DNA of 33,663 bases from a virus. Lineage: Duplodnaviria; Heunggongvirae; Uroviricota; Caudoviricetes. The stretch is from positions 1 through 33,663 of the IMG/VR virus record IMGVR_UViG_3300045988_122351. The stretch is one strand, 5' to 3'. The position numbers and the translations under genes are program-made. Each line of letters begins with the position of its first letter. Position 1 is the first letter of the stretch. Positions 1-29,914 of this stretch are shown piece after piece. The notes below the pieces were generated by a model. It searched no databases and was not told where the DNA came from. It was given only the letters and a program-made list of their open reading frames with translations.

Positions 1-65
1 GTTTCGCTGAAAAACATAACCCATAAAATGCTAGCTGTACCAGGAACCACCTCCTTAGCCTGTGT

Positions 66-92
66 AATCTCCCTTACACGGGCTTATTTTTT
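66..92. repeat. att core copy, ogr-proximal junction
   Basis: aatctcccttacacgggcttatttttt is the reverse complement of the P2 attP core AAAAAATAAGCCCGTGTAAGGGAGATT as I recall it; identical copy at 33570..33596. Confidence 0.85.
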
Positions 93-5605: not shown

Positions 5606-6796
5606 TTAATTGCTGTTAACCGAGGTGACCAGATTTGCCAGGTATTTATCGGTAATACGCTGGCGCAGGGTCAGGTTTTCAAGAGGAGGCACCGGTGTAT
5701 AGTCGTAGTCGATATACAGTTTTCCGGCCTTGAGGGTTTCCGCATCGTTGGATTCTTCGCTGAACCAGCAGGTCGCATCCACGATATAGCCGTTTGTTTT
5801 CAGCTCACGGAATTTGGCATTGATGCCGTCAACGATGTCGCGAATCAGCGTTGCGGTGATGGGCTTGTCCACCGCCCACATGTGCGCCTCAGCCATCGTG
5901 TCGGCCATCACCTGCGCGGTGCGGGTGTAGTTTTCAAAGAGGAACAGCGGGTCATCAGAGCAGGTACGGTTACCCCAGAATCGGAAACCGTCGCGGCGAA
6001 TCAGCGTAGTGACGCCTGACTCGTTAAGCAGGTCAGCATCGGTGCCGGACTCCTGCAAATCCCAGAATACAGATGCGCTGATGCCGGTAACACCGTTTAC
6101 CCCGACGTTGGACAGCGTTTTATGCCAGCCCTGCTCCTGGTCGATTTTAGCGCGCAGACCCAGCGCACGGGCGGTGGCATACGCGGTGGCGGTGGTACTG
6201 GTGACCGTATCCCATGCGAGGAAATCCGGCCAGATGACCATCAGCTCACGCTGGCTGAAATTCTGGCGGTAGGCTTTCACCTCGGAAATGGTCTTACAGC
6301 CCCATGCGCTGATATATCCGAAAGCGCGCAGCTTCTGACAGACGGATGCCAGTGCAACAGCCACCTCTTTGGTATCCAGTCCCGGCACACCGAGAATACG
6401 CGGTTTAACACCGGTTACCGACTCCGCCGCCAGCAGGGCTTTTAGTCCGGTGTACTGACCGTTTTCGTCGGTGGTGCCGATGATATTGGAAACGGTCTGC
6501 GCGAGTTTCGTTTCCTCGTCATCACCGGTGCCGTCTTCCACGCGCACGACAACGGTGACCGGTTTTGACTGGTCAGCGATGGCCTGCAACGATGCCGCCA
6601 GCGTGCCTTTTTTACCGGCCTTTGCAATTGCGCTTTGCACATTGGTAATCAGCACCGGTTTATTGAGGGGGAAGGTTTCCGCATCCGCATCGCTGGCCGT
6701 GCAGACCATGCCGACAATGGCAGTGGATACGGTGGAAATGACGCGGGTGCCGTCGTTAATCTCCAGCACCTGCACGCCATGATGATAGTCACTCAT
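5606..6796 (-). CDS. FI: Contractile tail sheath protein FI (396 aa)
   Basis: 396-aa ORF heading the FI-FII-E-T-U-D operon. Confidence 0.9.
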   Translation of the reverse strand: MSDYHHGVQVLEINDGTRVISTVSTAIVGMVCTASDADAETFPLNKPVLITNVQSAIAKAGKKGTLAASLQAIADQSKPVTVVVRVEDGTGDDEETKLAQTVSNIIGTTDENGQYTGLKALLAAESVTGVKPRILGVPGLDTKEVAVALASVCQKLRAFGYISAWGCKTISEVKAYRQNFSQRELMVIWPDFLAWDTVTSTTATAYATARALGLRAKIDQEQGWHKTLSNVGVNGVTGISASVFWDLQESGTDADLLNESGVTTLIRRDGFRFWGNRTCSDDPLFLFENYTRTAQVMADTMAEAHMWAVDKPITATLIRDIVDGINAKFRELKTNGYIVDATCWFSEESNDAETLKAGKLYIDYDYTPVPPLENLTLRQRITDKYLANLVTSVNSN

Positions 6797-6893
6797 CCGT
6801 TTAACTCCGTGGTTAATGGGTGCAACTATTTTCTGTTGTGCAGAGCATAAGACGCTATTTGACCTGGCTGGTCAGTGGATGAAACAACAGATA

Positions 6894-6919
6894 AAGAAAA
6901 GGCGGGCAATTCGCCCGCC
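6894..6919 (-). terminator. Hairpin terminator between cargo island 1 and FI
   Basis: Stem ggcgggc (6901..6907) / gcccgcc (6913..6919), loop aattc; on the minus strand followed by TTTTCTTT. Confidence 0.5.
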
Positions 6920-6975
6920 TGTCCTGATTTGTACTCACTCATTTTCCGCCTGACAATTTACATAGCCCAAATGCT

Positions 6976-6998
6976 ATCAAATCTGACAGTCTGCTTTG
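6976..6998. repeat. Site A: atcaaatctgacagtctgctttg, one of three related putative recombination sites
   Basis: 21/23 identity with 9286..9308 (direct); 16/16 identity of 6980..6995 with the reverse complement of 9414..9429 (inverted). Confidence 0.7.
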
Positions 6999-7126
6999 AG
7001 CGAAAAGTGGACATTAGAGTTACAAAAGCAAGTTTAAATCATCCAAAATATTACAATGTCCTTATCTATCTGATATCGTTATGATAAAAAGCTCCTGAAT
7101 ATAATCGATAGTAGGTGGTTATTTCC

Positions 7127-7504
7127 ATGAAATCAATTTTAGAGGTTTTTACTCAAGGAAATACTAAAGAAAAACTGGCTGTTATCGCCGATCTCACAAC
7201 CATTGCGGGAATATCGATTGCAACTATTATTGCTGGTTTGTTAACCCTAGTTGCAAAAACAGATAAACTAGATATTGGAAATCTGTTTGGAGTTGTCATA
7301 ATATCTCTGCTCGGATTGGCTGGTGTTTGCTGTTTTGTGGCCTTATTTATTTGGGTTATAACCCAAATGTCTAAACCATGGGGAACACCTCGGGGGGTTC
7401 AGCCCTTAGTTAAGTGTGCTATTTCCCTTATCTTTATCTGTATGTTTTTACTGGCTGTCTTTACATTTTATGAGTTTATTTCTTCGATGAGCATACGCTA
7501 TTGA
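7127..7504 (+). CDS. Small AT-rich membrane protein, about 3 predicted TM helices (125 aa); function unknown
   Basis: ORF 7115..7504; start moved to ATG 7127 after SD-like taggtgg (7112..7118); long hydrophobic stretches; low GC. Confidence 0.6.
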   Translation: MKSILEVFTQGNTKEKLAVIADLTTIAGISIATIIAGLLTLVAKTDKLDIGNLFGVVIISLLGLAGVCCFVALFIWVITQMSKPWGTPRGVQPLVKCAISLIFICMFLLAVFTFYEFISSMSIRY

Positions 7505-7526
7505 ATATAAAATCAGCCCCCATAAC

Positions 7527-8111
7527 TTAAAAGAGACCTTCTATATCGACTTCAATGCCCAAATAACGGACTGTGCTTTCCAGTTTCTTATGGCCCAACA
7601 GAAGTTGGATCACCCGGAGACTCTTGGTTTTCTTGTAGATTAAGTAAGGTTTTGTTCTTCTCATGGAATGTGTGCTGTACAGCGAATCTTCGAGACCAAG
7701 CTTTTCTACCCACCCATGAAAAATTCGGTTGTATTGCCGGGTTGATATATGGTGGTTAGTTCCGACCCGAGAGCGGAACAGGAAGCCTTTACTATGCAAG
7801 TTGCCGAGCTTTATCAATGCAGTAACCGCTTCCCTTGTCCCTTTGGTTATCTCAAATTGGACAGGGCTGCCGGTTTTCTGTTGCAACACCGTTGCTCTGC
7901 TTGAGACAGAACTGCCATATGCAGCATCTGATACTTTGAGTTTGACCAAATCACAGCCCCGTAGCTTAGTGTCCAAAGCCATGTTGAACAGAGCTAGATC
8001 GCGTGTTTTACCTTCCAACTCAAGTCTAATCCGGATCCCCCAGATATGAGATATCTGAAGTGGCCTTTTTTGACCGATGGTACGGTCTTTATTCCACGGT
8101 GACGTTTTCAT
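7527..8111 (-). CDS. Small tyrosine site-specific recombinase, catalytic domain only, FimB/FimE-sized (194 aa)
   Basis: Motifs in order: LRGCDL (Arg), HSMRRT (H-x-x-R), LLGH, VRY (Tyr); parallels the FimE layout. Start set at ATG 8111 with AGGAG 8 nt upstream; the track's TTG at 8213 would give 228 aa. Confidence 0.7.
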   Translation of the reverse strand: MKTSPWNKDRTIGQKRPLQISHIWGIRIRLELEGKTRDLALFNMALDTKLRGCDLVKLKVSDAAYGSSVSSRATVLQQKTGSPVQFEITKGTREAVTALIKLGNLHSKGFLFRSRVGTNHHISTRQYNRIFHGWVEKLGLEDSLYSTHSMRRTKPYLIYKKTKSLRVIQLLLGHKKLESTVRYLGIEVDIEGLF

Positions 8112-8217
8112 ATTCAAATCTCCTGCAATGTGGGAGATTTGAGTATGGTTGTCTCTCAAGAGCGAAAATAAGTCAACTATCACTAGTTGTTGCGCATGTA
8201 CGTATTCTGTCAATTAA

Positions 8218-9060
8218 TTATTGACAATCATCAATTCTGGAATGATCAAAATCATCATATCGAATTATAGTCTGGTTGACTGTATCTATTGTTGGTGTCA
8301 TTTCTGTTATAATATCCTGATAACCTAAAGAGTTAAATACATTTACTAAGGCCTCACACCGAAGGGCCGTAGCAATTACAAAATTATAAATTGCCAGCCG
8401 TTTATTTTCTTGTTTAACTGCAAGAATGAATTCGATAGCAGTATTTTCATCACTTTGGATTGCATTATATAGAGATACTATATTTACCATATCATCAGAG
8501 AATGTATGTATTGAATCACAAAGGGGAACGTAATGGGCATGATAGTGTGTTTCCCAGCCAATTAATTCAAAAAGTTTTCTGGTTCCTGGATATTCAGGTG
8601 TATTTGGCCACAATCTATTAAATAGATCAGTTAGTTCTTTTCCCATGCGAATCCTTTCATTTGCTGCTGGATTAGTCATTCCTTTGGATTTTAAACACTC
8701 CAGCCACCGTTTTCCATTACTATGAACTAATTTCTTACTAGCCTTGAGTAATGCTTGTGCATTTTCGCCATCATCTATTGCTATATAAAATTGATTGGCA
8801 GCCTGTTCTATTATAACCCTAGCTAATACTTCCGATGCTGAAAAGGCTCCTATATTCAAAGAAGAGATAGCCTGATTACTAAGTTCATTCAGTACATTAA
8901 AGTACTGTAAGACCATCAATTTTTGTTCCACACCCTTTAGGTTGTCTATTTTATTTTTATGCTCCTCAAATTTTGCATGGATATATTTATTTATCGCGGC
9001 TATTTTTTTTACATCTTCGTCAAGATCAAACGGGCAACGTCCAAACAATTCTTTTTTCAT
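8218..9060 (-). CDS. Hypothetical protein (280 aa), His-rich patch ETHYHAHYVPLCDSIH; function unknown
   Basis: Clean 280-aa ORF, ATG at 9060 with AGGAG 6-7 nt upstream; AT-rich; immediately upstream of the recombinase on the same strand. Confidence 0.65.
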   Translation of the reverse strand: MKKELFGRCPFDLDEDVKKIAAINKYIHAKFEEHKNKIDNLKGVEQKLMVLQYFNVLNELSNQAISSLNIGAFSASEVLARVIIEQAANQFYIAIDDGENAQALLKASKKLVHSNGKRWLECLKSKGMTNPAANERIRMGKELTDLFNRLWPNTPEYPGTRKLFELIGWETHYHAHYVPLCDSIHTFSDDMVNIVSLYNAIQSDENTAIEFILAVKQENKRLAIYNFVIATALRCEALVNVFNSLGYQDIITEMTPTIDTVNQTIIRYDDFDHSRIDDCQ

Positions 9061-9285
9061 ATATTTCTCCTGTTGTACAAGCTTCCATACGTTGGCAGAT
9101 TATACACTGAAGATTACCTATAAATAGCTGTGCGGGATAGCAGATCAGTGCAAGAAGTACAACCAAGTGAACTGTGCGTATTCAGATACCTGGCCTAACG
9201 TTCGCGATAGCCGTCCCCTGCACGAAGCCATATATTAGATGTATTAGCTCAGACCTTATCTGACAGGTTGAGTAGGTAGAATCTA

Positions 9286-9308
9286 ATCAAAGCTGACAGT
9301 CTGGTTTG
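9286..9308. repeat. Site B: atcaaagctgacagtctggtttg, direct copy of site A
   Basis: 21/23 match to 6976..6998; a partial copy atctgacag lies 27 bp upstream at 9258..9266. Confidence 0.7.
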
Positions 9309-9413
9309 GACTGTGAGTTCAACTGATGGATGCAACACACAGCGATCTACGGACATTACTAGCATAGCTGTGTATTAATCATCGGGAAGCAGGTCAGTCC
9401 GCTCCTAGCACAG

Positions 9414-9429
9414 AGCAGACTGTCAGATT
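9414..9429. repeat. Site C: agcagactgtcagatt, inverted copy of the site A/B core
   Basis: Reverse complement aatctgacagtctgct equals 6980..6995 exactly; with site B it brackets a 105-bp segment. Confidence 0.7.
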
Positions 9430-9481
9430 AGGCTTTACTCTGTGCTATAGATACGTTAGCTCACTCCAGAGATCATACAAC

Positions 9482-10009
9482 TTATTGCGGCATTTCCGGC
9501 CATTCAGGATTTGCAGGATCCACACGGCTGACCAGAACACTGTAGCGTTCCCATGCTTCCAGTCGGCTACGCTCCTCATCTGTTGCCATATTCAGTCTGA
9601 CAGAGCGTTCCAGTGGCTGAATGATAGTTTCAGCTTCGGAAAGCAAAGCTGACTTCTGTAATTCCGCCAGTTGCAGCTGTTCGTCTGCCGTATAAATCCG
9701 CTTAATCACGGCACCATCCTTAAACATCCATTTACCTGAGTCATCAGCACGTCGGTTGGCGGTAATATCAGGAACCTCGACAACGCTAAAACCTTCAGGG
9801 TTGAGCGTTGAAGCATCTCTGGTGATGCCGACAATTATATTATTCTCATCGTAAACAATCTTTATCGTGTCTTCCTGAAAATTACTTACTTCCTCATACC
9901 AGTTTTTTCCCTCTTCGGACCATAACCAGATAACATCAAAATTTTTTGTCAGTTGATATTGGGCAACAGTTTTTGGATTACCCGCAGTAATATTTTTTAA
10001 ATGCTGCAT
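9482..10009 (-). CDS. G: Tail fiber assembly protein G (175 aa)
   Basis: 175-aa ORF immediately downstream of H; length and position as in P2. Confidence 0.8.
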
Positions 10010-15174: not shown

Positions 15175-15307
15175 AAGATCTAGCATGCTGCTGAGAACTG
15201 ATGAGAACAATAAAAGAGTGTTTTTCTAAGGTTGACACAACACTCCATTTGAAGTGAATATAATGATTACTTAACTGGCAAAAAAACATCCTCACTAATT
15301 GGAGCCA

Positions 15308-16399
15308 ATGGATACACGCATGTCAGACATTCTAATTACTTATGATGAACGGAAAGATAAATTTGAGTCCTATGCCCTTACTCTTAAATCGTTATTAACC
15401 ACGTTAATTCGCAATGAAAAAATTTCAATTCACTCACTTGAATCAAGAGTTAAAACAAAAAAAAGCCTTGAAGGTAAGATTAATAAAAAGGGAAAATACA
15501 AGTCTATAGATGATATTACTGATATCGTTGGTATCAGGATCATCACACATTATGCTGATGATGTTGATAAGATAGCTGCTATAGTTGAAAAGGAGTTCAC
15601 CATTGACCAAGAGAACTCTATTGATAAAAGAACCTCAATTGCGCCTGATAAATTTGGTTACCTATCACTTCATTATATAGTAACTTTAAACTCAACCAGA
15701 ACAAACTTAAAAGAATATGAAGTATATAAAAACATCAAAGCCGAATTACAAATACGATCAATCCTTCAGCATGCCTGGGCGGAGATTGAACACGACATTG
15801 GTTATAAGTCGGCCACAGGACTGCCTAATGAAATAAGAAGATACTTTTCACGCTTAGCTGGTCTTTTAGAAATGGCCGATGATGAATTTATTAAAATCAG
15901 AAAAAAGATTTCTGAACGGCAGAAAGAGGTTGCAAAAGAACTAGAGCAAGGAACTAGTGATTCAGTTTTAGATATTTTCACTTTGGATGAGTTCTTAAAC
16001 ACAAGTCGAATTATGAGTGAACTTTCAGAAGAGATAAAAGAAAAAACAGGAATCACAGTACATGGCCGATACAAGGATAAAGATTTGGGATACCTACTAA
16101 ATGGTTTAAACCTAGCCAACATAACTACAATAGAACAACTCAATCAAAAACTCTCACAAATGAAAAAGCAGATCGTAGATAGAATATTCTGCTTCGGAGA
16201 ACCATTTATTAATTATTGCAGAGAAACCCCCATGCCAAAAGAAGCTCTTTTGAGTTATTTATGTCAAATTATCGTTGCGTTTCAAAACTCACCTTCGTTA
16301 GAATCTGAATTTAATAACAAAGCAGGTTTAAATCTGAAAAACAGCAATATCTCCGATTTTTTCTCGAATATAAGAGAAAACATAAGCACACAACCTTAG
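15308..16399 (+). CDS. RelA/SpoT-family nucleotidyltransferase (small alarmone synthetase-like, toxSAS), probable single-gene CapRel-like fused toxin-antitoxin (about 363 aa)
   Basis: Synthetase motifs in order: SRVKTKKSLEGKI, DIVGIRIIT, FGYLSLHY, ELQIRSILQHAWAEIEHDIGYK; about 170-aa C-terminal extension; no room for a separate antitoxin gene. Start uncertain (TTG 15299, ATG 15308, ATG 15320). Confidence 0.75.
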   Translation: MDTRMSDILITYDERKDKFESYALTLKSLLTTLIRNEKISIHSLESRVKTKKSLEGKINKKGKYKSIDDITDIVGIRIITHYADDVDKIAAIVEKEFTIDQENSIDKRTSIAPDKFGYLSLHYIVTLNSTRTNLKEYEVYKNIKAELQIRSILQHAWAEIEHDIGYKSATGLPNEIRRYFSRLAGLLEMADDEFIKIRKKISERQKEVAKELEQGTSDSVLDIFTLDEFLNTSRIMSELSEEIKEKTGITVHGRYKDKDLGYLLNGLNLANITTIEQLNQKLSQMKKQIVDRIFCFGEPFINYCRETPMPKEALLSYLCQIIVAFQNSPSLESEFNNKAGLNLKNSNISDFFSNIRENISTQP

Positions 16400-25975: not shown

Positions 25976-26599
25976 TCATACTAACTTGTCTATTGAAATT
26001 ACAAGCTTTTCGATGAAGTTCTTAACTACTACCATATCATCACCAGTTATGGGCCAAGGCTCACGAGGTGTAATTGGTTGCATGTCACCTTCATGTGCTA
26101 TCTTATTACGTCGATCAACAATCGCATTCAGATTTAATCTCAGTGACTTAGATTCTAAATCGGCATTACTATTCGTAGCACCTTGATCTATTGCAACCTC
26201 TCTCCACAAGGAAATATTTGAAATCAGCCTAATTCCATCAGCAATAGATTCACTGGTTTGATACGTTTGAATCCCAAGTTGTCGCCTAACTTCTAAGTCA
26301 TAAATTTGGTCACGAGTCCAAGCGTTGTTAAAAATATTATTCATAACACTATGGGGCATTGTAAACTTATCGTATTTCTGCGTACTAGCCCTCCTTCCCT
26401 GAAAAATCTCAAGCATCCGCTGCGCGACAAGTTCATGAATATATAAATCTAAAGCAGAAACTCTAGCAACCCACTCAGCTCTCAGAATTTCTCGAGAATC
26501 AAATACACTCGAAAAATTAGTAGAAGTATAAGCATATGTCACAGATAACAAATCACATCTAATCCAAGCACGGTCAAATATCGATTTTGGCGTTGACAT
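25976..26599 (-). CDS. Hypothetical protein with C-terminal HEPN-like R-x4-H motif (207 aa); candidate RNase effector
   Basis: Motif VDRRNKIAHEGD near the C-terminus resembles the RNxxxHE signature of HepT-type HEPN proteins; AT-rich; 3 bp after the upstream ATPase gene. Confidence 0.55.
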   Translation of the reverse strand: MSTPKSIFDRAWIRCDLLSVTYAYTSTNFSSVFDSREILRAEWVARVSALDLYIHELVAQRMLEIFQGRRASTQKYDKFTMPHSVMNNIFNNAWTRDQIYDLEVRRQLGIQTYQTSESIADGIRLISNISLWREVAIDQGATNSNADLESKSLRLNLNAIVDRRNKIAHEGDMQPITPREPWPITGDDMVVVKNFIEKLVISIDKLV

Positions 26600-26602
26600 A
26601 CT

Positions 26603-27646
26603 TCAATCTCTTGTCAGGGCGATAACCCTTTCTGCACAAGTGTCAAATGCAGCAGAAAATACAGTCATATTTTTTTCCGTCTGATCCCAAACAGCGCCTT
26701 TCTGACCAGTCTGTTGGGCTGTCAGTGTGTAGACTGGAACTTGAAATTCCTGAGACATAGCAATCAGACTATTGAAATCAGAGACTTCCATTATTGGGTC
26801 AGAAGGAGGCATCCCTGCTTTTTGCTCAAACTCGACTACATCCAACATATCAAACTCAACAAGTTTCGGGATTAGCAAAGAAATTAAGTTATCTCGAAGT
26901 TCATCAATCCATTTTTGGAAGGCCGCAGATGCCTGACCATTGCGTGGTCTATACTTTTGGACGATAGAACCTATAAATTTCACGTTAGACTCAGGGAATG
27001 GATAGTTAGCATTCTGGAGCAACTCCATTCGTGAAGCCATGTTTGCCCATTGTTTCCATCTTGGTAAAGTACGAGCGAGAGAAGAAAGGGCCATCGACGA
27101 GAAATAATCAGGATGAAGAGGTACGATAAAATAATCTGATGTAGTTAAAATGTTTTGGTTCAATGGCCCCAGGCTCGGGCTCATATCAACAATCACATAA
27201 TCTGCATTTACTTTTTCAGCAGTTAGGTCAAACAAATACCTGATAGAACCAGGAAGGTTTTTAAGTGGTAATAATGACCCCGTTAATTCTTGAGCTACAC
27301 CTAATGTAGTTTCATACTCAGAAAGCCCAATATGGCCGGCAAGAAGATGCAAGTTTGCATTACCCTCGATATCAAACACTTCTGCAGGTTCAATCGCACT
27401 TGGTTTAGACTCAAAAGCAGGAGAAAGGGCGTCACGAATATTATTGGCTACTGGTTGATTATAAATCTGTTCTAAATCCGCAATGCCTCTAAATCCAAGA
27501 ATCATTCCGGTAAGATTACATTGTGGATCACAATCAGCTAGCAAAACCTTATGACCTTTCTCAGCCAACTTCCAACCTAAGTTAAACGCAGTAGTAGTTT
27601 TACTTACTCCACCCTTATGATTAAACAAACAGATTACCTTCGCCAT
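26603..27646 (-). CDS. ParA/MinD-family P-loop ATPase with C-terminal extension (347 aa)
   Basis: Deviant Walker A KGGVSKTT at residues 11-18, DCDPQCN motif, Walker B-like YVIVDMSP; about 100 extra C-terminal residues; no adjacent ParB-like gene. Confidence 0.75.
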   Translation of the reverse strand: MAKVICLFNHKGGVSKTTTAFNLGWKLAEKGHKVLLADCDPQCNLTGMILGFRGIADLEQIYNQPVANNIRDALSPAFESKPSAIEPAEVFDIEGNANLHLLAGHIGLSEYETTLGVAQELTGSLLPLKNLPGSIRYLFDLTAEKVNADYVIVDMSPSLGPLNQNILTTSDYFIVPLHPDYFSSMALSSLARTLPRWKQWANMASRMELLQNANYPFPESNVKFIGSIVQKYRPRNGQASAAFQKWIDELRDNLISLLIPKLVEFDMLDVVEFEQKAGMPPSDPIMEVSDFNSLIAMSQEFQVPVYTLTAQQTGQKGAVWDQTEKNMTVFSAAFDTCAERVIALTRD

Positions 27647-27844: not shown

Positions 27845-29914
27845 TTAAAATCGCTCACCACTTCTTTGCTGTCGATATCGCCGCTGTATATGGCATTTCA
27901 AAACTTCCCTAAATACCAACACAGCTTCGGGGTCATCCCATGCTATAACACCGTCATCAACCAGATTAAGCACGGCTGCAGCATGTTCAGAAGGTGTGGG
28001 AGCCGGTAACGAAGTATCACTGCCGGTGAGCTTTCCACAGTTATTGACAGGACTCCGAGGCGCGGCGATGCCGCTTTTTAAAGTCAAAGGCTCAACGACC
28101 GGAACTTTCGGCACAATGCGCCAGTCCGTCGTTCTGGTGATATGAATATGACGCGCGCCGAGATGCGGCGCGTAAATGCCGACCACTCTCTCAACTTCTT
28201 CCTCGTACTCGTTAACGTCATCCGACGGGCTACGGGCAACCCTGACAGTCTGACAATCGCGCGGGACATTTGCCCCACCCTGCGCGCTGATATACAACGC
28301 AAAATCACCACTGTCTGCGGCAGCGCGAGCAGCCTCGACGCGTTCGTCAAACTCATCAGCAATACTGACGCCGCGAGGCAATTTGCGTAGTTCACGGTAA
28401 GCCCCCATTGTCGGCAGTCCAACCGTTTTAAATTGCGGGATGCGCCACGTTGACGCCCATGCGGTAACAGCCGCGGCAGTATCTTTAAGCGGCTTACCGG
28501 TATCGTTATCGAGCTGACCATCCAGTGCATAGCCGTCGATATTTTTTGAAATGTATTTCGCGATATATCCCGCAGCACCGCCCCGGTTAAGGTGTTTTGC
28601 CTGAAAACGGTTTCGCGCAGCTCCTCTTTCATCGCCATCCTCTTTGAGCGCATAGCGACGCATGATTTCGATAATCTGGTTACGCTGGCGCGGATTACAA
28701 AAAAGCATCATATGCCAGTGCGGCGTTCCGTCGTGGTGTGGCTCGACGACACGCAAACCGTAGACCTGTAAATCATTATCCTTGAATGCCGTGCGCATCA
28801 GGCTCCAGATACGGCAGAGATAACGCTGCGCATCCTTTGGATTAAATGCCTCATCGTTCCAGCCGTGATTAAGCTGCACGGTTTTACTTTCGCCTTTTCC
28901 GACCTGACGTGTCGGGTGATACTTTGACGGCGCGGTCAGCGTGATAAACATCCCCACATCACCCTCTGCGGCGGCGTAACGCTCAATACCGGCAATGGTG
29001 TTCATCAGCTCCATCCGGCGAATTTCAGGATTAGAAATACTGCCCATCACCTTACTGATAAGGTCGATGCGCTCGCCGGTTTCCCTGTTTTCGAGGTCAC
29101 ACGATTTAAGAAATTCCAGATTTGCCTGGCGGCGCGCACGCACATCACGAATGGCATGTTTACTGGCATAAGGAGAACGGTCTTTATTGACCTCCCCGAC
29201 AGCTATCAGTAACGCCTCATGCCAGCGCATACGCTGGCCTTTAAGCTGATGAGTCCACCACTCATCGTTAAACAGGCGGGCAATGGCAGAATATGCCTGC
29301 CTCGTGGTCATCTGTCCTTTACGGTATTTTTTCCAGTAGAGAGGGGAAATATTGAAAGCACGTGCAGCGCCAGCAACATGACCATACAGGTGAGCCTGCG
29401 CCTCATCCGTAAACAGCGATTCTTTTTCGCCATGCGCATCCACCCAAGCATCGCTGAGTTCCTCATACATCATGAAAAGCTGCGATGAGATACGGGCGGC
29501 AAACTTTTTCAGCTCCTTGTCATTCATTCCCGGCAGTCGCGCATAGTGGTCACGCTCTGCCAGAAACAGCAACGACGCGTCGGTGTTCATTTCATGGCGC
29601 TGATTCACACGCTCAATGCGCGGCCATAAACGACGCTGAAAAGTGGATGTGAGGAAATAAAACCCGTGCACCGGGCTTTTATTGCGCCGGATGTAGTCAT
29701 AGCGTGAAGTAAACAGCGAGCGCAAAAAGTAAGGCAGGCGGTTAATCGTGGATAAAACACCTTGCACCTGACGCATCTCGTCACGTGTAAGGGGTCTTTC
29801 GCGCCCGACAGCCTCGCGTGGCGCGTTCCATGCATAAGCACCGGTAAACGCCTTACCGGTGCCTGCAGCAAATGCTGACGGAGGGACAAAACGCCCGGAG
29901 GCTTTAACGGCCAT
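27845..29914 (-). CDS. A: Replication initiation protein A, HUH rolling-circle endonuclease (689 aa as called)
   Basis: ORF 27845..29956; start set at MAVKASGRF...; HUH-type motif TPHWHMMLF and paired tyrosines YIAKYISK; C-terminus shorter than I recall for P2 A. Confidence 0.85.
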   Translation of the reverse strand: MAVKASGRFVPPSAFAAGTGKAFTGAYAWNAPREAVGRERPLTRDEMRQVQGVLSTINRLPYFLRSLFTSRYDYIRRNKSPVHGFYFLTSTFQRRLWPRIERVNQRHEMNTDASLLFLAERDHYARLPGMNDKELKKFAARISSQLFMMYEELSDAWVDAHGEKESLFTDEAQAHLYGHVAGAARAFNISPLYWKKYRKGQMTTRQAYSAIARLFNDEWWTHQLKGQRMRWHEALLIAVGEVNKDRSPYASKHAIRDVRARRQANLEFLKSCDLENRETGERIDLISKVMGSISNPEIRRMELMNTIAGIERYAAAEGDVGMFITLTAPSKYHPTRQVGKGESKTVQLNHGWNDEAFNPKDAQRYLCRIWSLMRTAFKDNDLQVYGLRVVEPHHDGTPHWHMMLFCNPRQRNQIIEIMRRYALKEDGDERGAARNRFQAKHLNRGGAAGYIAKYISKNIDGYALDGQLDNDTGKPLKDTAAAVTAWASTWRIPQFKTVGLPTMGAYRELRKLPRGVSIADEFDERVEAARAAADSGDFALYISAQGGANVPRDCQTVRVARSPSDDVNEYEEEVERVVGIYAPHLGARHIHITRTTDWRIVPKVPVVEPLTLKSGIAAPRSPVNNCGKLTGSDTSLPAPTPSEHAAAVLNLVDDGVIAWDDPEAVLVFREVLKCHIQRRYRQQRSGERF

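Follow-up and report, generated by a model that had tools for sequence, protein, structure and literature searches.

Inserts at the Z/fun locus of P2-like phages, together with the inverted repeats that flank them, were reportedly described by Nilsson, Karlsson and Haggard-Ljungquist in 2004, apparently without a named enzyme. In the GenBank annotation of 2004, the outer pair is given as inverted repeats flanking the Z region. The Z/fun locus is recognised as the second defence hotspot of P2 (PMC9519451), and the inverted repeats of the Z locus had already been proposed to mediate site-specific cargo exchange between P2-like phages and enterobacterial genomes (summarised in PMC8987985). The cargo of phage and satellite defence hotspots is known to be very diverse, its precise exchange mechanism is largely unexplained, and the system reported here may explain how the cargo is exchanged. 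The Z/fun inserts of AJ512683 and AJ512685 occupy the same locus and have the same outer inverted repeats as the insert analysed in this work. Unlike them, our insert carries a nested recombinase, two cassettes and extra internal sites.

The insert lies in a P2-like prophage contained in the window (the whole stretch of DNA that was analysed, 33,663 nucleotides), between the sheath gene FI (5606-6796) and the tail fibre assembly gene G (9482-10009). The flanks are 92-95% identical to P2, Wphi and L-413C, in agreement with the initial annotation, which had placed an AT-rich cassette at the Z/fun locus. Its coordinates for the repeats and open reading frames were all verified, as was the low GC content (0.31-0.40 within the insert versus 0.53-0.59 in the adjoining tail genes). 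We propose, with a probability of roughly 0.6, that a site-specific system of cassette exchange is docked here, in the P2 Z/fun hotspot, and that the insert is an array of two of its cassettes, now probably immobile. Table 1 shows the features on which this reading is built.

Table 1. Predicted features of the insert and its borders (positions in the window).
Feature	Position	Strand	Remarks
Left long repeat unit, FI side	6930..7012	+	Inverted repeat assigned to the P2 backbone; inner end is S2; nhmmer E 2.8e-21
S2 core site, GTCTGCTT-TGAGCGAA-AAGTGGAC	6989..7012	+	Faces cargo; 2 mismatches to S2 consensus
Membrane-protein cassette remnant	7013..7545	+	Distal ~310 bp and S1 site deleted; junction 7545/7546
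Membrane-protein gene, 125 aa	7127..7504	+	Three hydrophobic segments; phrog_4155
Small tyrosine recombinase, 194 aa	7527..8111	-	PF00589, 65.1 bits (cut-off 27.1), E 9e-18
Hairpin predicted to sequester recombinase RBS and start codon	8109..8147	-	15-nt arms, 93% complementary
Degenerate S2-like site, GTCTCTCA-AGAGCGAA-AATAAGTCAAC	8151..8177	+	Upstream of recombinase; left boundary of DUF5677 cassette
DUF5677 cassette	8178..9396	-	Gene 8218-9060, 280 aa; DUF5677 E 5e-10
Third repeat unit, inside DUF5677 cassette	9240..9323	+	nhmmer E 7.6e-28
S3, variant core of third unit, GTCTGGTT-TGGACTGT-GAGTTCAAC	9299..9323	+	
73-bp mosaic of site-proximal sequences	9324..9396	+	Cassette-start-like motif GGAC/ATTACTAGCATAGCTGTGTA at 9350-9374
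Right long repeat unit, G side	9397..9479	-	Inverted repeat assigned to the P2 backbone; S1 core at 9397-9420; nhmmer E 1e-19
S1 core site, GTCTGCTC-TGTGCTAG-GAGCGGAC	9397..9420	-	2 mismatches to S1 consensus

Three copies of CTGACAGTCTG had been noticed at the locus: one within the repeat at 6976-6998 (ATCAAATCTGACAGTCTGCTTTG), another in its direct copy at 9286-9308 (21/23) and the last in a perfect 16-nt inverted copy at 9414-9429. Their occurrence far above chance was confirmed, as the 11-mer with at most one mismatch is found four times in the window, the shuffle mean is 0.39 and none of 100 shuffles reached four. The fourth copy (28242-28252, within replication gene A) has no site context and was rejected as a site. 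The repeats extend into units of about 85-100 nt, which had been overlooked, and CTGACAGTCTG reads as the outer flank plus left arm of 24-bp sites composed of an 8-bp arm, an 8-bp spacer and an 8-bp arm. The core was first read as CTGACAGTC-7-GACTGTGAG from the third copy, and the 8-8-8 structure was adopted after aligning many sites. Consensus sequences built from 148 and 78 unique sites are GTCCGCTC-TGTGCCAG-GAGCGGAC for S1 and GTCYGCTT-TGAGCGAA-AAGYGGAC for S2, respectively. The three copies in the window differ in right arm and spacer (TGAGCGAA in S2, TGGACTGT in S3 and TGTGCTAG in S1), a difference that had also escaped attention.

Sites of this family are found in many other genomes. A total of 325 S1/S2-type sites were detected in 1.9 Mb of related loci and none in shuffled sequence. 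The exact S1 16-mer is present in 109 viral contigs, nearly all with the full GTCCGCTY-TGTGCCAG-GAGCGGAC context, and a DNA-pattern scan located the exact 24-mer in Pantoea, Erwinia, Enterobacter, Klebsiella, Citrobacter, Yersinia and Idiomarina genomes. The 24-bp palindromic core marks the cargo boundaries not only in P2 but also in a lambdoid prophage, in tRNA islands, on plasmids and in ICE-like elements. A text search of the available papers with the site sequence returned nothing relevant. Neighbouring S1 and S2 sites form 79 inward-facing pairs with cargo between them (gaps of 0.36-5.3 kb), 26 outward-facing junctions have a median gap of 18 bp, and there are 10 outward S1/S1 junctions. 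Neighbouring cassettes are joined by a compact element consisting of S2, an 18-bp linker and S1; at another P2-like Z locus the canonical array reads S2, DUF6650, S1, 18 bp, S2, TM, S1. In some arrays, a gene for a 200-aa tyrosine recombinase replaces the linker, and in most, the surrounding 5-10 kb contain no recombinase gene. The cargo genes are located on either strand, and 109 cargo protein clusters were recovered from 96 cassettes.

The point of exchange was located by comparing pairs of sites. When the cargo side was shared and the outside was different, the left arm differed; in S2 the mismatch frequencies at left-arm positions 4, 6 and 8 were 0.62, 0.38 and 0.75, and those in the spacer and right arm did not exceed 0.12. 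In pairs with a shared outside and different cargo, it was the right arm that differed (up to 0.71), together with the last base of the spacer (0.54). This partitioning places the exchange point in the spacer. The first suggestion, that the repeats belong to real site-specific recombination sites, was supported. In the S2 of the window, the right arm and the cassette start are identical to those of an internal S2 in the E. coli SaT040 locus (L196), and the left arm is of the backbone type.

The two outer sites had been interpreted as boundaries of the cassette. Positions 6922-7012 and 9397-9510 can be aligned with the repeat_regions annotated in AJ512683 and AJ512685. P2-EC58 and P2-EC67, whose cargo is unrelated, have conserved the outer pair, annotated there as left and right inverted repeats. 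Homology to P2 phages with other cargo stops at the inner ends, 7012 and 9397. These repeats, shared with P2 phages carrying other cargo, are part of the conserved P2 backbone, and their interpretation as cassette-specific boundaries had to be abandoned. The possibility that the repeat units are a known RNA was rejected, as the search of 6800-9600 against Rfam returned nothing at E ≤ 1 (the sole match in the whole window was CyaR).

The identification of a tyrosine recombinase with a full catalytic set was supported by the PF00589 match and by the R of LRGCDL, the K of QQKTG, HSMRRT, LLGH and TVRY, which we take to be the catalytic R-K-H-R-H-Y residues of tyrosine recombinases. These motifs are nearly invariant in 106 full-length homologues, which are highly conserved. 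About 8000 proteins of ~200 aa are 75-93% identical to the window recombinase, and a PDB sequence search produced no match at 1e-3. The family occurs in more than 12 different contexts, in which homology is confined to the gene and its sites (GTCCRCTYYTCGCTCATAAGGGAC upstream and TGTGCCAGRAGCGGA downstream) and the gene is always nested between an S2 and an S1 whose gene-proximal arms are degenerate. The hairpin upstream of the gene (dG -19.9 kcal/mol, z -2.8) is likewise conserved in more than 12 contexts. The degenerate S2-like site, a fourth site that had been overlooked, has a poor right arm and aligns with the canonical site upstream of the recombinase, GTCCCTTA-TGAGCGAG-GAGTGGAC, where homology between contexts ends. 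In a clade of recombinases with 58-64% identity, the surrounding sites carry the altered spacer CGGCCAR. Of 5426 E. coli genomes, 773 contain the recombinase module, so the enzyme could be supplied in trans; many copies of the gene are fragments or pseudogenes.

The recombinase gene of the window differs from its relatives at the 3′ end. Only 7546-8111 encodes native residues; the last five residues and the stop codon are the neighbouring cassette read backwards. The invariant C-terminal tail of the family, DDALEISESIEV, is replaced by IEGLF (the protein ends in ...GIEVDIEGLF), which the initial annotation had not noticed, and the downstream hairpin and S1 are absent. The recombinase is truncated at its C-terminus, by a deletion that fused the gene to the membrane-protein cassette and also removed the S1 site. 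The window recombinase is probably impaired, as we infer that loss of the tail costs activity.

The proposal of a single three-gene cassette gave way to one of two cassettes with a recombinase between them, the membrane-protein gene being a separate cassette. E. coli SaT040 has the same membrane-protein cassette in complete form (L196:3001-3857, 857 bp), with S2 and S1 on its two sides, and the cassette is present in 64 E. coli genomes versus 36 with the whole insert. The block composed of the recombinase and DUF5677 recurs in a lambdoid prophage with 89% identity, and the homology extends to 9396, the last position before the P2 backbone takes over again. The DUF5677 cassette travels together with the recombinase, and because the block recurs in another phage type, a self-mobilising origin is plausible. 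The lambdoid copy is bordered by a recombinase-proximal S1 and, in the same orientation, by what may be a degenerate S1-like sequence; the latter was obtained by forced alignment and detected by neither nhmmer nor the site scan. The third repeat unit and the mosaic inside the DUF5677 cassette are unexplained by the simple model. S3 sites bound the cargo of two other loci (L006 and L008), the motif in the mosaic matches the conserved cassette starts RTTRCTAACATC..TGTR, and parts of the mosaic turn up on their own in about 140 E. coli genomes and plasmids.

Profile searches of the three proteins returned phrog_4155, PF00589 and DUF5677. The anti-phage role suggested for the cassette gained no direct support, as none of the three proteins matched a PADLOC model at E ≤ 1. 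Only 11 clusters of homologues of the DUF5677 protein were found, its best E value in a PDB profile search was 0.14, and its AlphaFold model is all-helical with a pLDDT of 69.6. The more distant homologues are lone prophage genes adjoining neither the recombinase nor the sites, and a distant DUF5677 gene tested in E. faecalis is absent from the defending genes that the study reports (bioRxiv 10.1101/2025.10.07.681051). The searches yielded no function for the DUF5677 protein or the membrane protein.

In the mechanism that we propose, each cassette is bounded by two 24-bp sites that face inward and have 8-bp inverted arms around an 8-bp spacer, TGTGCCAG in S1 and TGAGCGAA in S2. Recombination would take place only between like sites, so that cargo could be swapped or added without inversion, and the 200-aa tyrosine recombinase is the candidate enzyme for the exchange. 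The Z locus may first have held the small membrane-protein cassette (S2, TM, S1). A circle containing the recombinase, the degenerate S2 and the DUF5677 cassette would then have integrated by recombination between two S1 sites, and a subsequent deletion of about 0.4 kb would have removed the internal S1, the end of the membrane-protein cassette and the conserved acidic tail of the recombinase.

A different mechanism was implied by the initial annotation, in which the three copies of CTGACAGTCTG are equivalent recombinase targets and the module excises (2.3 kb) or flips (2.4 kb). The copies exist well beyond chance expectation and the recombinase is FimB/FimE-sized with its catalytic set intact, but we consider this explanation very unlikely. 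Because the three copies are three site types, with different spacers and right arms, both reactions would join non-identical crossover regions. In addition, the outer two sites are found in P2 phages without the recombinase, the window recombinase lacks the invariant tail and its own S1 site, and its scores with the invertase models are 20.1 bits (NF007371, cut-off 222) and 14.4 bits (NF007370, cut-off 221). In each of the 36 complete E. coli genomes that carry the insert, the match to the window is a single colinear piece, in one orientation; no circle, inversion or alternative array was seen in them, and E. coli genome comparisons revealed neither an excised Z locus nor a P2 locus with DUF5677 alone. 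Since the recombinase lost its tail and S1 site and all 36 genomes are colinear, the array is probably locked. Of the earlier idea of a self-mobilising or phase-variable module, the first part survives as a plausible origin, and the colinear genomes speak against the second.

Two other explanations dispense with the small recombinase as the enzyme of exchange. The repeats could be regulatory or terminator sequences conserved in mobile elements, with cargo swapped by homologous recombination across these short flanks, through RecA or phage recombinases, and with the recombinase as a passenger. The repeat units adjoin the PF promoter region and stand downstream of G, the place of the annotated V-operon terminator in P2, the P2 flanks of about 100 bp are well conserved, and the recombinase is missing near most arrays. 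This account is nonetheless improbable, as unrelated backbones have the same core at the cargo boundaries, the inward pairs are heterotypic and the linker is fixed at 18 bp with great regularity, the switch point lies within 8 bp, the recombinase is always located between cassettes with precise boundaries, and site and recombinase co-vary in the distant clade. The sites could also be real and served by another enzyme, such as host XerC/XerD or a larger island or phage integrase, in which case the 200-aa protein would have an accessory or regulatory part or would be a decaying remnant. The scarcity of nearby recombinase genes leaves room for such an enzyme, modules that have inversely oriented sites and no linked recombinase are reminiscent of pdif modules, and many recombinase copies are broken. 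Against this view, which we regard as unlikely, the 8-8-8 sites (GTCCGCTC..GAGCGGAC) are unlike dif by inspection, the catalytic motifs are complete in a highly conserved family, and the recombinase is strictly nested between both site types. The two-cassette array of an exchange system is the reading that we prefer.

A broader proposal, which we put forward tentatively and at somewhat less than even odds, is that the S1/S2 sites and the 200-aa recombinase make up a cassette system not recognised before, integron-like but built on double sites (natural RMCE), in Enterobacterales and some marine Gammaproteobacteria. Through it, cassettes for defence and resistance would pass among prophages (P2-like and lambdoid), islands, plasmids and ICE-like elements, and it would provide the missing mechanism and enzyme of Z/fun cargo turnover. 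The cassette-swapping system is widespread and apparently undescribed, and part of the site description may be in Nilsson et al. 2004. A defined pair of 24-bp sites and a candidate enzyme would make the question of cargo exchange directly testable. The site pair would also serve as a signature by which accessory and defence cassettes could be located in prophages, plasmids and islands, and the system might offer a compact natural tool for exchanging cassettes directionally. For the prophage in the window the meaning is more modest, as its array looks fixed.

The system has features in common with several described ones. Like integrons, it has mobile cassette arrays separated by short imperfect palindromes, a tyrosine recombinase and defence-rich cargo, and the many S1/S2 arrays without the enzyme resemble CALINs. 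Unlike IntI, the recombinase has 200 aa and consists of the catalytic domain only; the window protein has no N-terminal domain and scores far below the cut-offs of the integron integrase models (18.3 and 18.2 bits versus 435 and 265). Moreover, the sites face inward and have two spacer types instead of being direct attC sites, cargo genes are found in either orientation, and the recombinase is located between cassettes rather than at a fixed platform. The dif site has an 11-6-11 geometry. Acinetobacter pdif modules, which depend on XerC/XerD, are similarly discrete, with inversely oriented sites that alternate along the replicon and usually no linked recombinase. In contrast to pdif, the S1/S2 sites have a sequence and geometry unrelated to dif by inspection, two spacer classes, an 18-bp linker and a dedicated small recombinase family embedded between them. 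FimB/FimE-type invertases are also single catalytic domains of about 200 aa, and the recombinase matches their models weakly; unlike those switches, the flanking sites are heterotypic and the 36 complete E. coli genomes show no inversion polymorphism. The logic that we infer for this system, two incompatible inverted sites, directional exchange and suppressed inversion, is that of engineered RMCE with heterospecific lox or FRT sites. Engineered RMCE is a laboratory design, and its natural counterpart is proposed here from sequence.

The window is a P2-like prophage. Its insert shares 99.7-99.9% identity with prophages of E. coli S88 and 35 more complete genomes, and lies in the FI-G interval, where P2 has fun(Z). 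The initial annotation described an AT-rich three-gene cassette bracketed by three copies of CTGACAGTCTG, and these features are all present. The 23-nt site was found at 6976-6998, its direct copy (21/23) at 9286-9308 and the perfect inverted 16-nt copy at 9414-9429, and the GC content of the insert is 0.31-0.40 versus 0.53-0.59 in the flanks. The small membrane protein has 125 aa with three hydrophobic segments (phrog_4155), the 194-aa tyrosine recombinase matches PF00589 (E 9e-18) with complete catalytic motifs, and a profile search assigned the 280-aa protein to DUF5677 (E 5e-10). The 11-mer occurs four times in the window against a shuffle mean of 0.39, a count of four being reached in 0 of 100 shuffles. 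The fourth exact CTGACAGTCTG (28242-28252, +) is inside replication gene A, without flanking site context, and is probably a chance occurrence. The features under study are listed in the table.

Features of the insert and its surroundings (window coordinates)
Feature	Position	Strand	Remark
CyaR/RyeE sRNA gene	4-89	+	100.7 bits; extreme edge of window; prophage adjoins cyaR
Tail sheath gene FI	5606-6796	minus	one side of insert
S2 site	6989-7012		end of P2 left repeat; left end of insert
TM (membrane-protein) cassette	truncated at 7545		after S2
Recombinase	native from 7546	minus	
Recombinase RBS hairpin	8109-8147		
Degenerate S2-like site	8151-8177		
DUF5677 cassette	8178-9396		S3 unit and 73-bp mosaic inside
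S3 variant site	9299-9323		end of third copy
S1 site	9397-9420		end of P2 right repeat; right end of insert
Tail fibre assembly gene G	9482-10009	minus	other side of insert

The interpretation originally placed on the repeats, excision or inversion between equivalent copies bracketing a phase-variable or mobile module, is not supported. Each of the three CTGACAGTCTG copies represents a site type with a spacer of its own, the outer pair is phage backbone instead of a cassette-specific bracket, and 36 of 36 carrier genomes are colinear, with IS3 and IS21 insertions as the sole variants. These insertions, in two carrier genomes (locus L004:5648-7950, E. coli 98208, and database match H45), are ISEc12 (IS21 family) at about window position 9254 and an IS3-family element. 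Within the phage collection, the Z regions of P2-EC58 and P2-EC67 (GenBank AJ512683 and AJ512685) matched best; they carry unrelated cargo, and their records annotate one inverted repeat as 'left' and one as 'right'. The window is nearly identical to them up to 7012 and again from 9397, and the alignment shows no similarity in between. The outer inverted pair is backbone and was previously known. According to a review (PMC8987985), Nilsson et al. (2004) already proposed site-specific exchange for Z-locus inserts, and Vassallo et al. (2022) described the Z locus as a second defence hotspot of P2, in which three systems were validated (PMC9519451). In reference P2 (NC_001895, 15500-19000; L229), a recognisable S2-type site (5 mismatches) was found on the FI side of fun(Z) only; the G side has an ordinary terminator without S1.

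Sequences partly related to the region of the third copy (9230-9400) occur elsewhere in E. coli, for example in a tRNA-Ser island, in an integrase/replication element and in a P2-like remnant located between ogr and D. Together with the two P2 repeats they align as one family of units of about 85-100 nt, each with a 24-bp core at its end, and an nhmmer profile of this family found the units as inverted pairs around unrelated cargo. Scanning 2.9 million viral contigs for TGTGCCAGGAGCGGAC yielded 109 loci, nearly all with the context GTCCGCTY-TGTGCCAG-GAGCGGAC-RTTR, an 8-bp spacer between two inverted 8-bp arms (S1). About 50 nt upstream of S1, many loci have, in reverse orientation, a second site, GTCCGCTG-TGAGCGAA-AAGCGGAC (S2). 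The exact 24-mer was found in genomes of a dozen Enterobacterales genera and Idiomarina. Some S1 sites (L036, L041, L076) directly adjoin an apparent tRNA 3' end, and arrays can therefore begin at the edge of tRNA-inserted islands. Copies of a 45-nt segment, CATTACTAGCATAGCTGTGTATTAATCATCGGGAAGCAGGTCAG (window 9352-9396; L007:4001-4049), with 84-89% identity are present in about 140 E. coli chromosomes and plasmids, frequently beside IS or integrase remnants. The segment matches the conserved start RTTRCTAACATC..TGTR located just inside many S1 sites, and may serve as an extended binding site or a promoter.

A scan of 196 loci (1.9 Mb, up to 5 mismatches) detected 325 sites, and none in shuffled sequence. 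Neighbouring sites were most commonly inward-facing S1/S2 pairs (n=79, gaps 0.36-5.3 kb), followed by outward-facing junctions, 26 of them S1/S2 (median gap 18 bp) and 10 S1/S1. The cargo of 96 cassettes formed 109 protein clusters, among them Old, AbiV-type HEPN, AbiEii, AbiGi, SIR2, AAA+HNH pairs and a caspase domain, as well as ArsB/ArsC, a beta-lactamase-family protein, LysR regulators and transporters.

When S2 sites sharing the cargo side and differing in their outer flanks were paired, mismatch frequencies were 0.62, 0.38 and 0.75 at left-arm positions 4, 6 and 8, and at most 0.12 in the spacer and right arm. In pairs sharing the outer flank with different cargo, right-arm mismatch reached 0.71 and that of the last spacer base was 0.54. 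S1 pairs followed the same trend. The Z locus of E. coli SaT040, a strain with a complete TM cassette, reads S2 / DUF6650 / S1, 18 bp, S2 / TM cassette / S1; its internal S2 and the left site of the window are identical in the right arm and cassette start (AAGTGGAC|ATTAGAG) and differ in the left arm. This partition of mismatches, together with the SaT040 case, is the footprint that would be expected of strand exchange inside the spacer.

Compared with SaT040, the TM cassette of the window lacks its S1 and the final ~310 bp. The recombinase, compared with its family, has lost its last 12 residues, nearly invariant among 106 homologues, along with its downstream hairpin and S1, and its C-terminus, IEGLF, is the TM cassette terminator read backwards. 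The rec-DUF5677 block (recombinase plus DUF5677 cassette) is also found in a lambdoid prophage at 89% identity, where the recombinase is a pseudogene, the rec-proximal S1 is canonical and homology breaks off at the exact position at which the window returns to P2 backbone. The Z locus would first have carried the TM cassette; a rec-DUF5677 circle may then have integrated by S1 x S1 recombination, and the deletion would have come after this integration.

The recombinase has about 8000 relatives of ~200 aa, 75-93% identical, in Proteus, Providencia, Pantoea, Idiomarina, Cycloclasticus and others. Across contexts, DNA homology to the window is confined to 7545-8166. In canonical copies upstream homology begins at GTCCRCTYYTCGCTCATAAGGGAC, and the gene ends in ...VRYLGIEVDDALEISESIEV followed by a hairpin and by TGTGCCAGGAGCGGAC, the end of homology; this downstream terminus matches the P2 right repeat at its inner end. 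From its sequence and context, we infer that the 200-aa recombinase is a candidate enzyme for site exchange. In favour of this role, it is strictly nested between both site types in more than 12 contexts and is highly conserved, with complete catalytic motifs. Its RBS and start codon are sequestered in a conserved hairpin (dG -19.9, z -2.8), which would fit tight translational control. At four loci (L150, L151, L154, L172), recombinases 58-64% identical lie among repeated sites whose spacer differs (CGGCCAR-AAGCGGAC), which suggests that recombinase and site subfamilies are co-evolving. Also in favour, 773 of 5426 E. coli genomes have the module, which could thus act in trans. Against this role, most arrays have no recombinase copy nearby and many copies are fragments. 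About 570 plasmids (matches H134-H155), mostly Klebsiella plasmids of ~200-330 kb, include just the first ~80 bp of the module, an S2-like site and the RBS hairpin, which looks like a widespread scar.

PADLOC returned no matches for the three insert proteins (125, 194 and 280 aa). DUF5677 has few relatives, every one in a prophage accessory position; the protein is modelled as a helical bundle, for which a structural-neighbour search was uninformative. Judging only from its location, the cargo could reasonably be guessed to act in defence or superinfection exclusion. Elsewhere in the prophage, a 366-aa ORF (15299-16399, +) is encoded opposite the tail and lysis genes. It contains a RelA/SpoT nucleotidyltransferase domain (E 1.9e-21), matches the PADLOC candidate PDC-S33 (E 1e-16) and is probably a further accessory or defence gene of the toxic small-alarmone-synthetase type. 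The cargo at 25976-27646 (-) occupies the other P2 hotspot, which is flanked by portal gene Q and replication gene A, and comprises a ParA-like ATPase (AAA_31, E 6.6e-33) and a RiboL-PSP HEPN protein (E 9.3e-12); a scan allowing up to 5 mismatches detected no S1/S2 site here.

Both the outer repeats and the proposal that the Z locus undergoes site-specific exchange go back to 2004. A literature search, which did not cover the text of Nilsson et al. (2004), found no description of sites defined as 8-8-8, of their two spacer classes, of arrays with 18-bp linkers, of spread beyond P2 or of a dedicated recombinase. Integrons and pdif modules are known cassette systems of the same general kind as the S1/S2 system.
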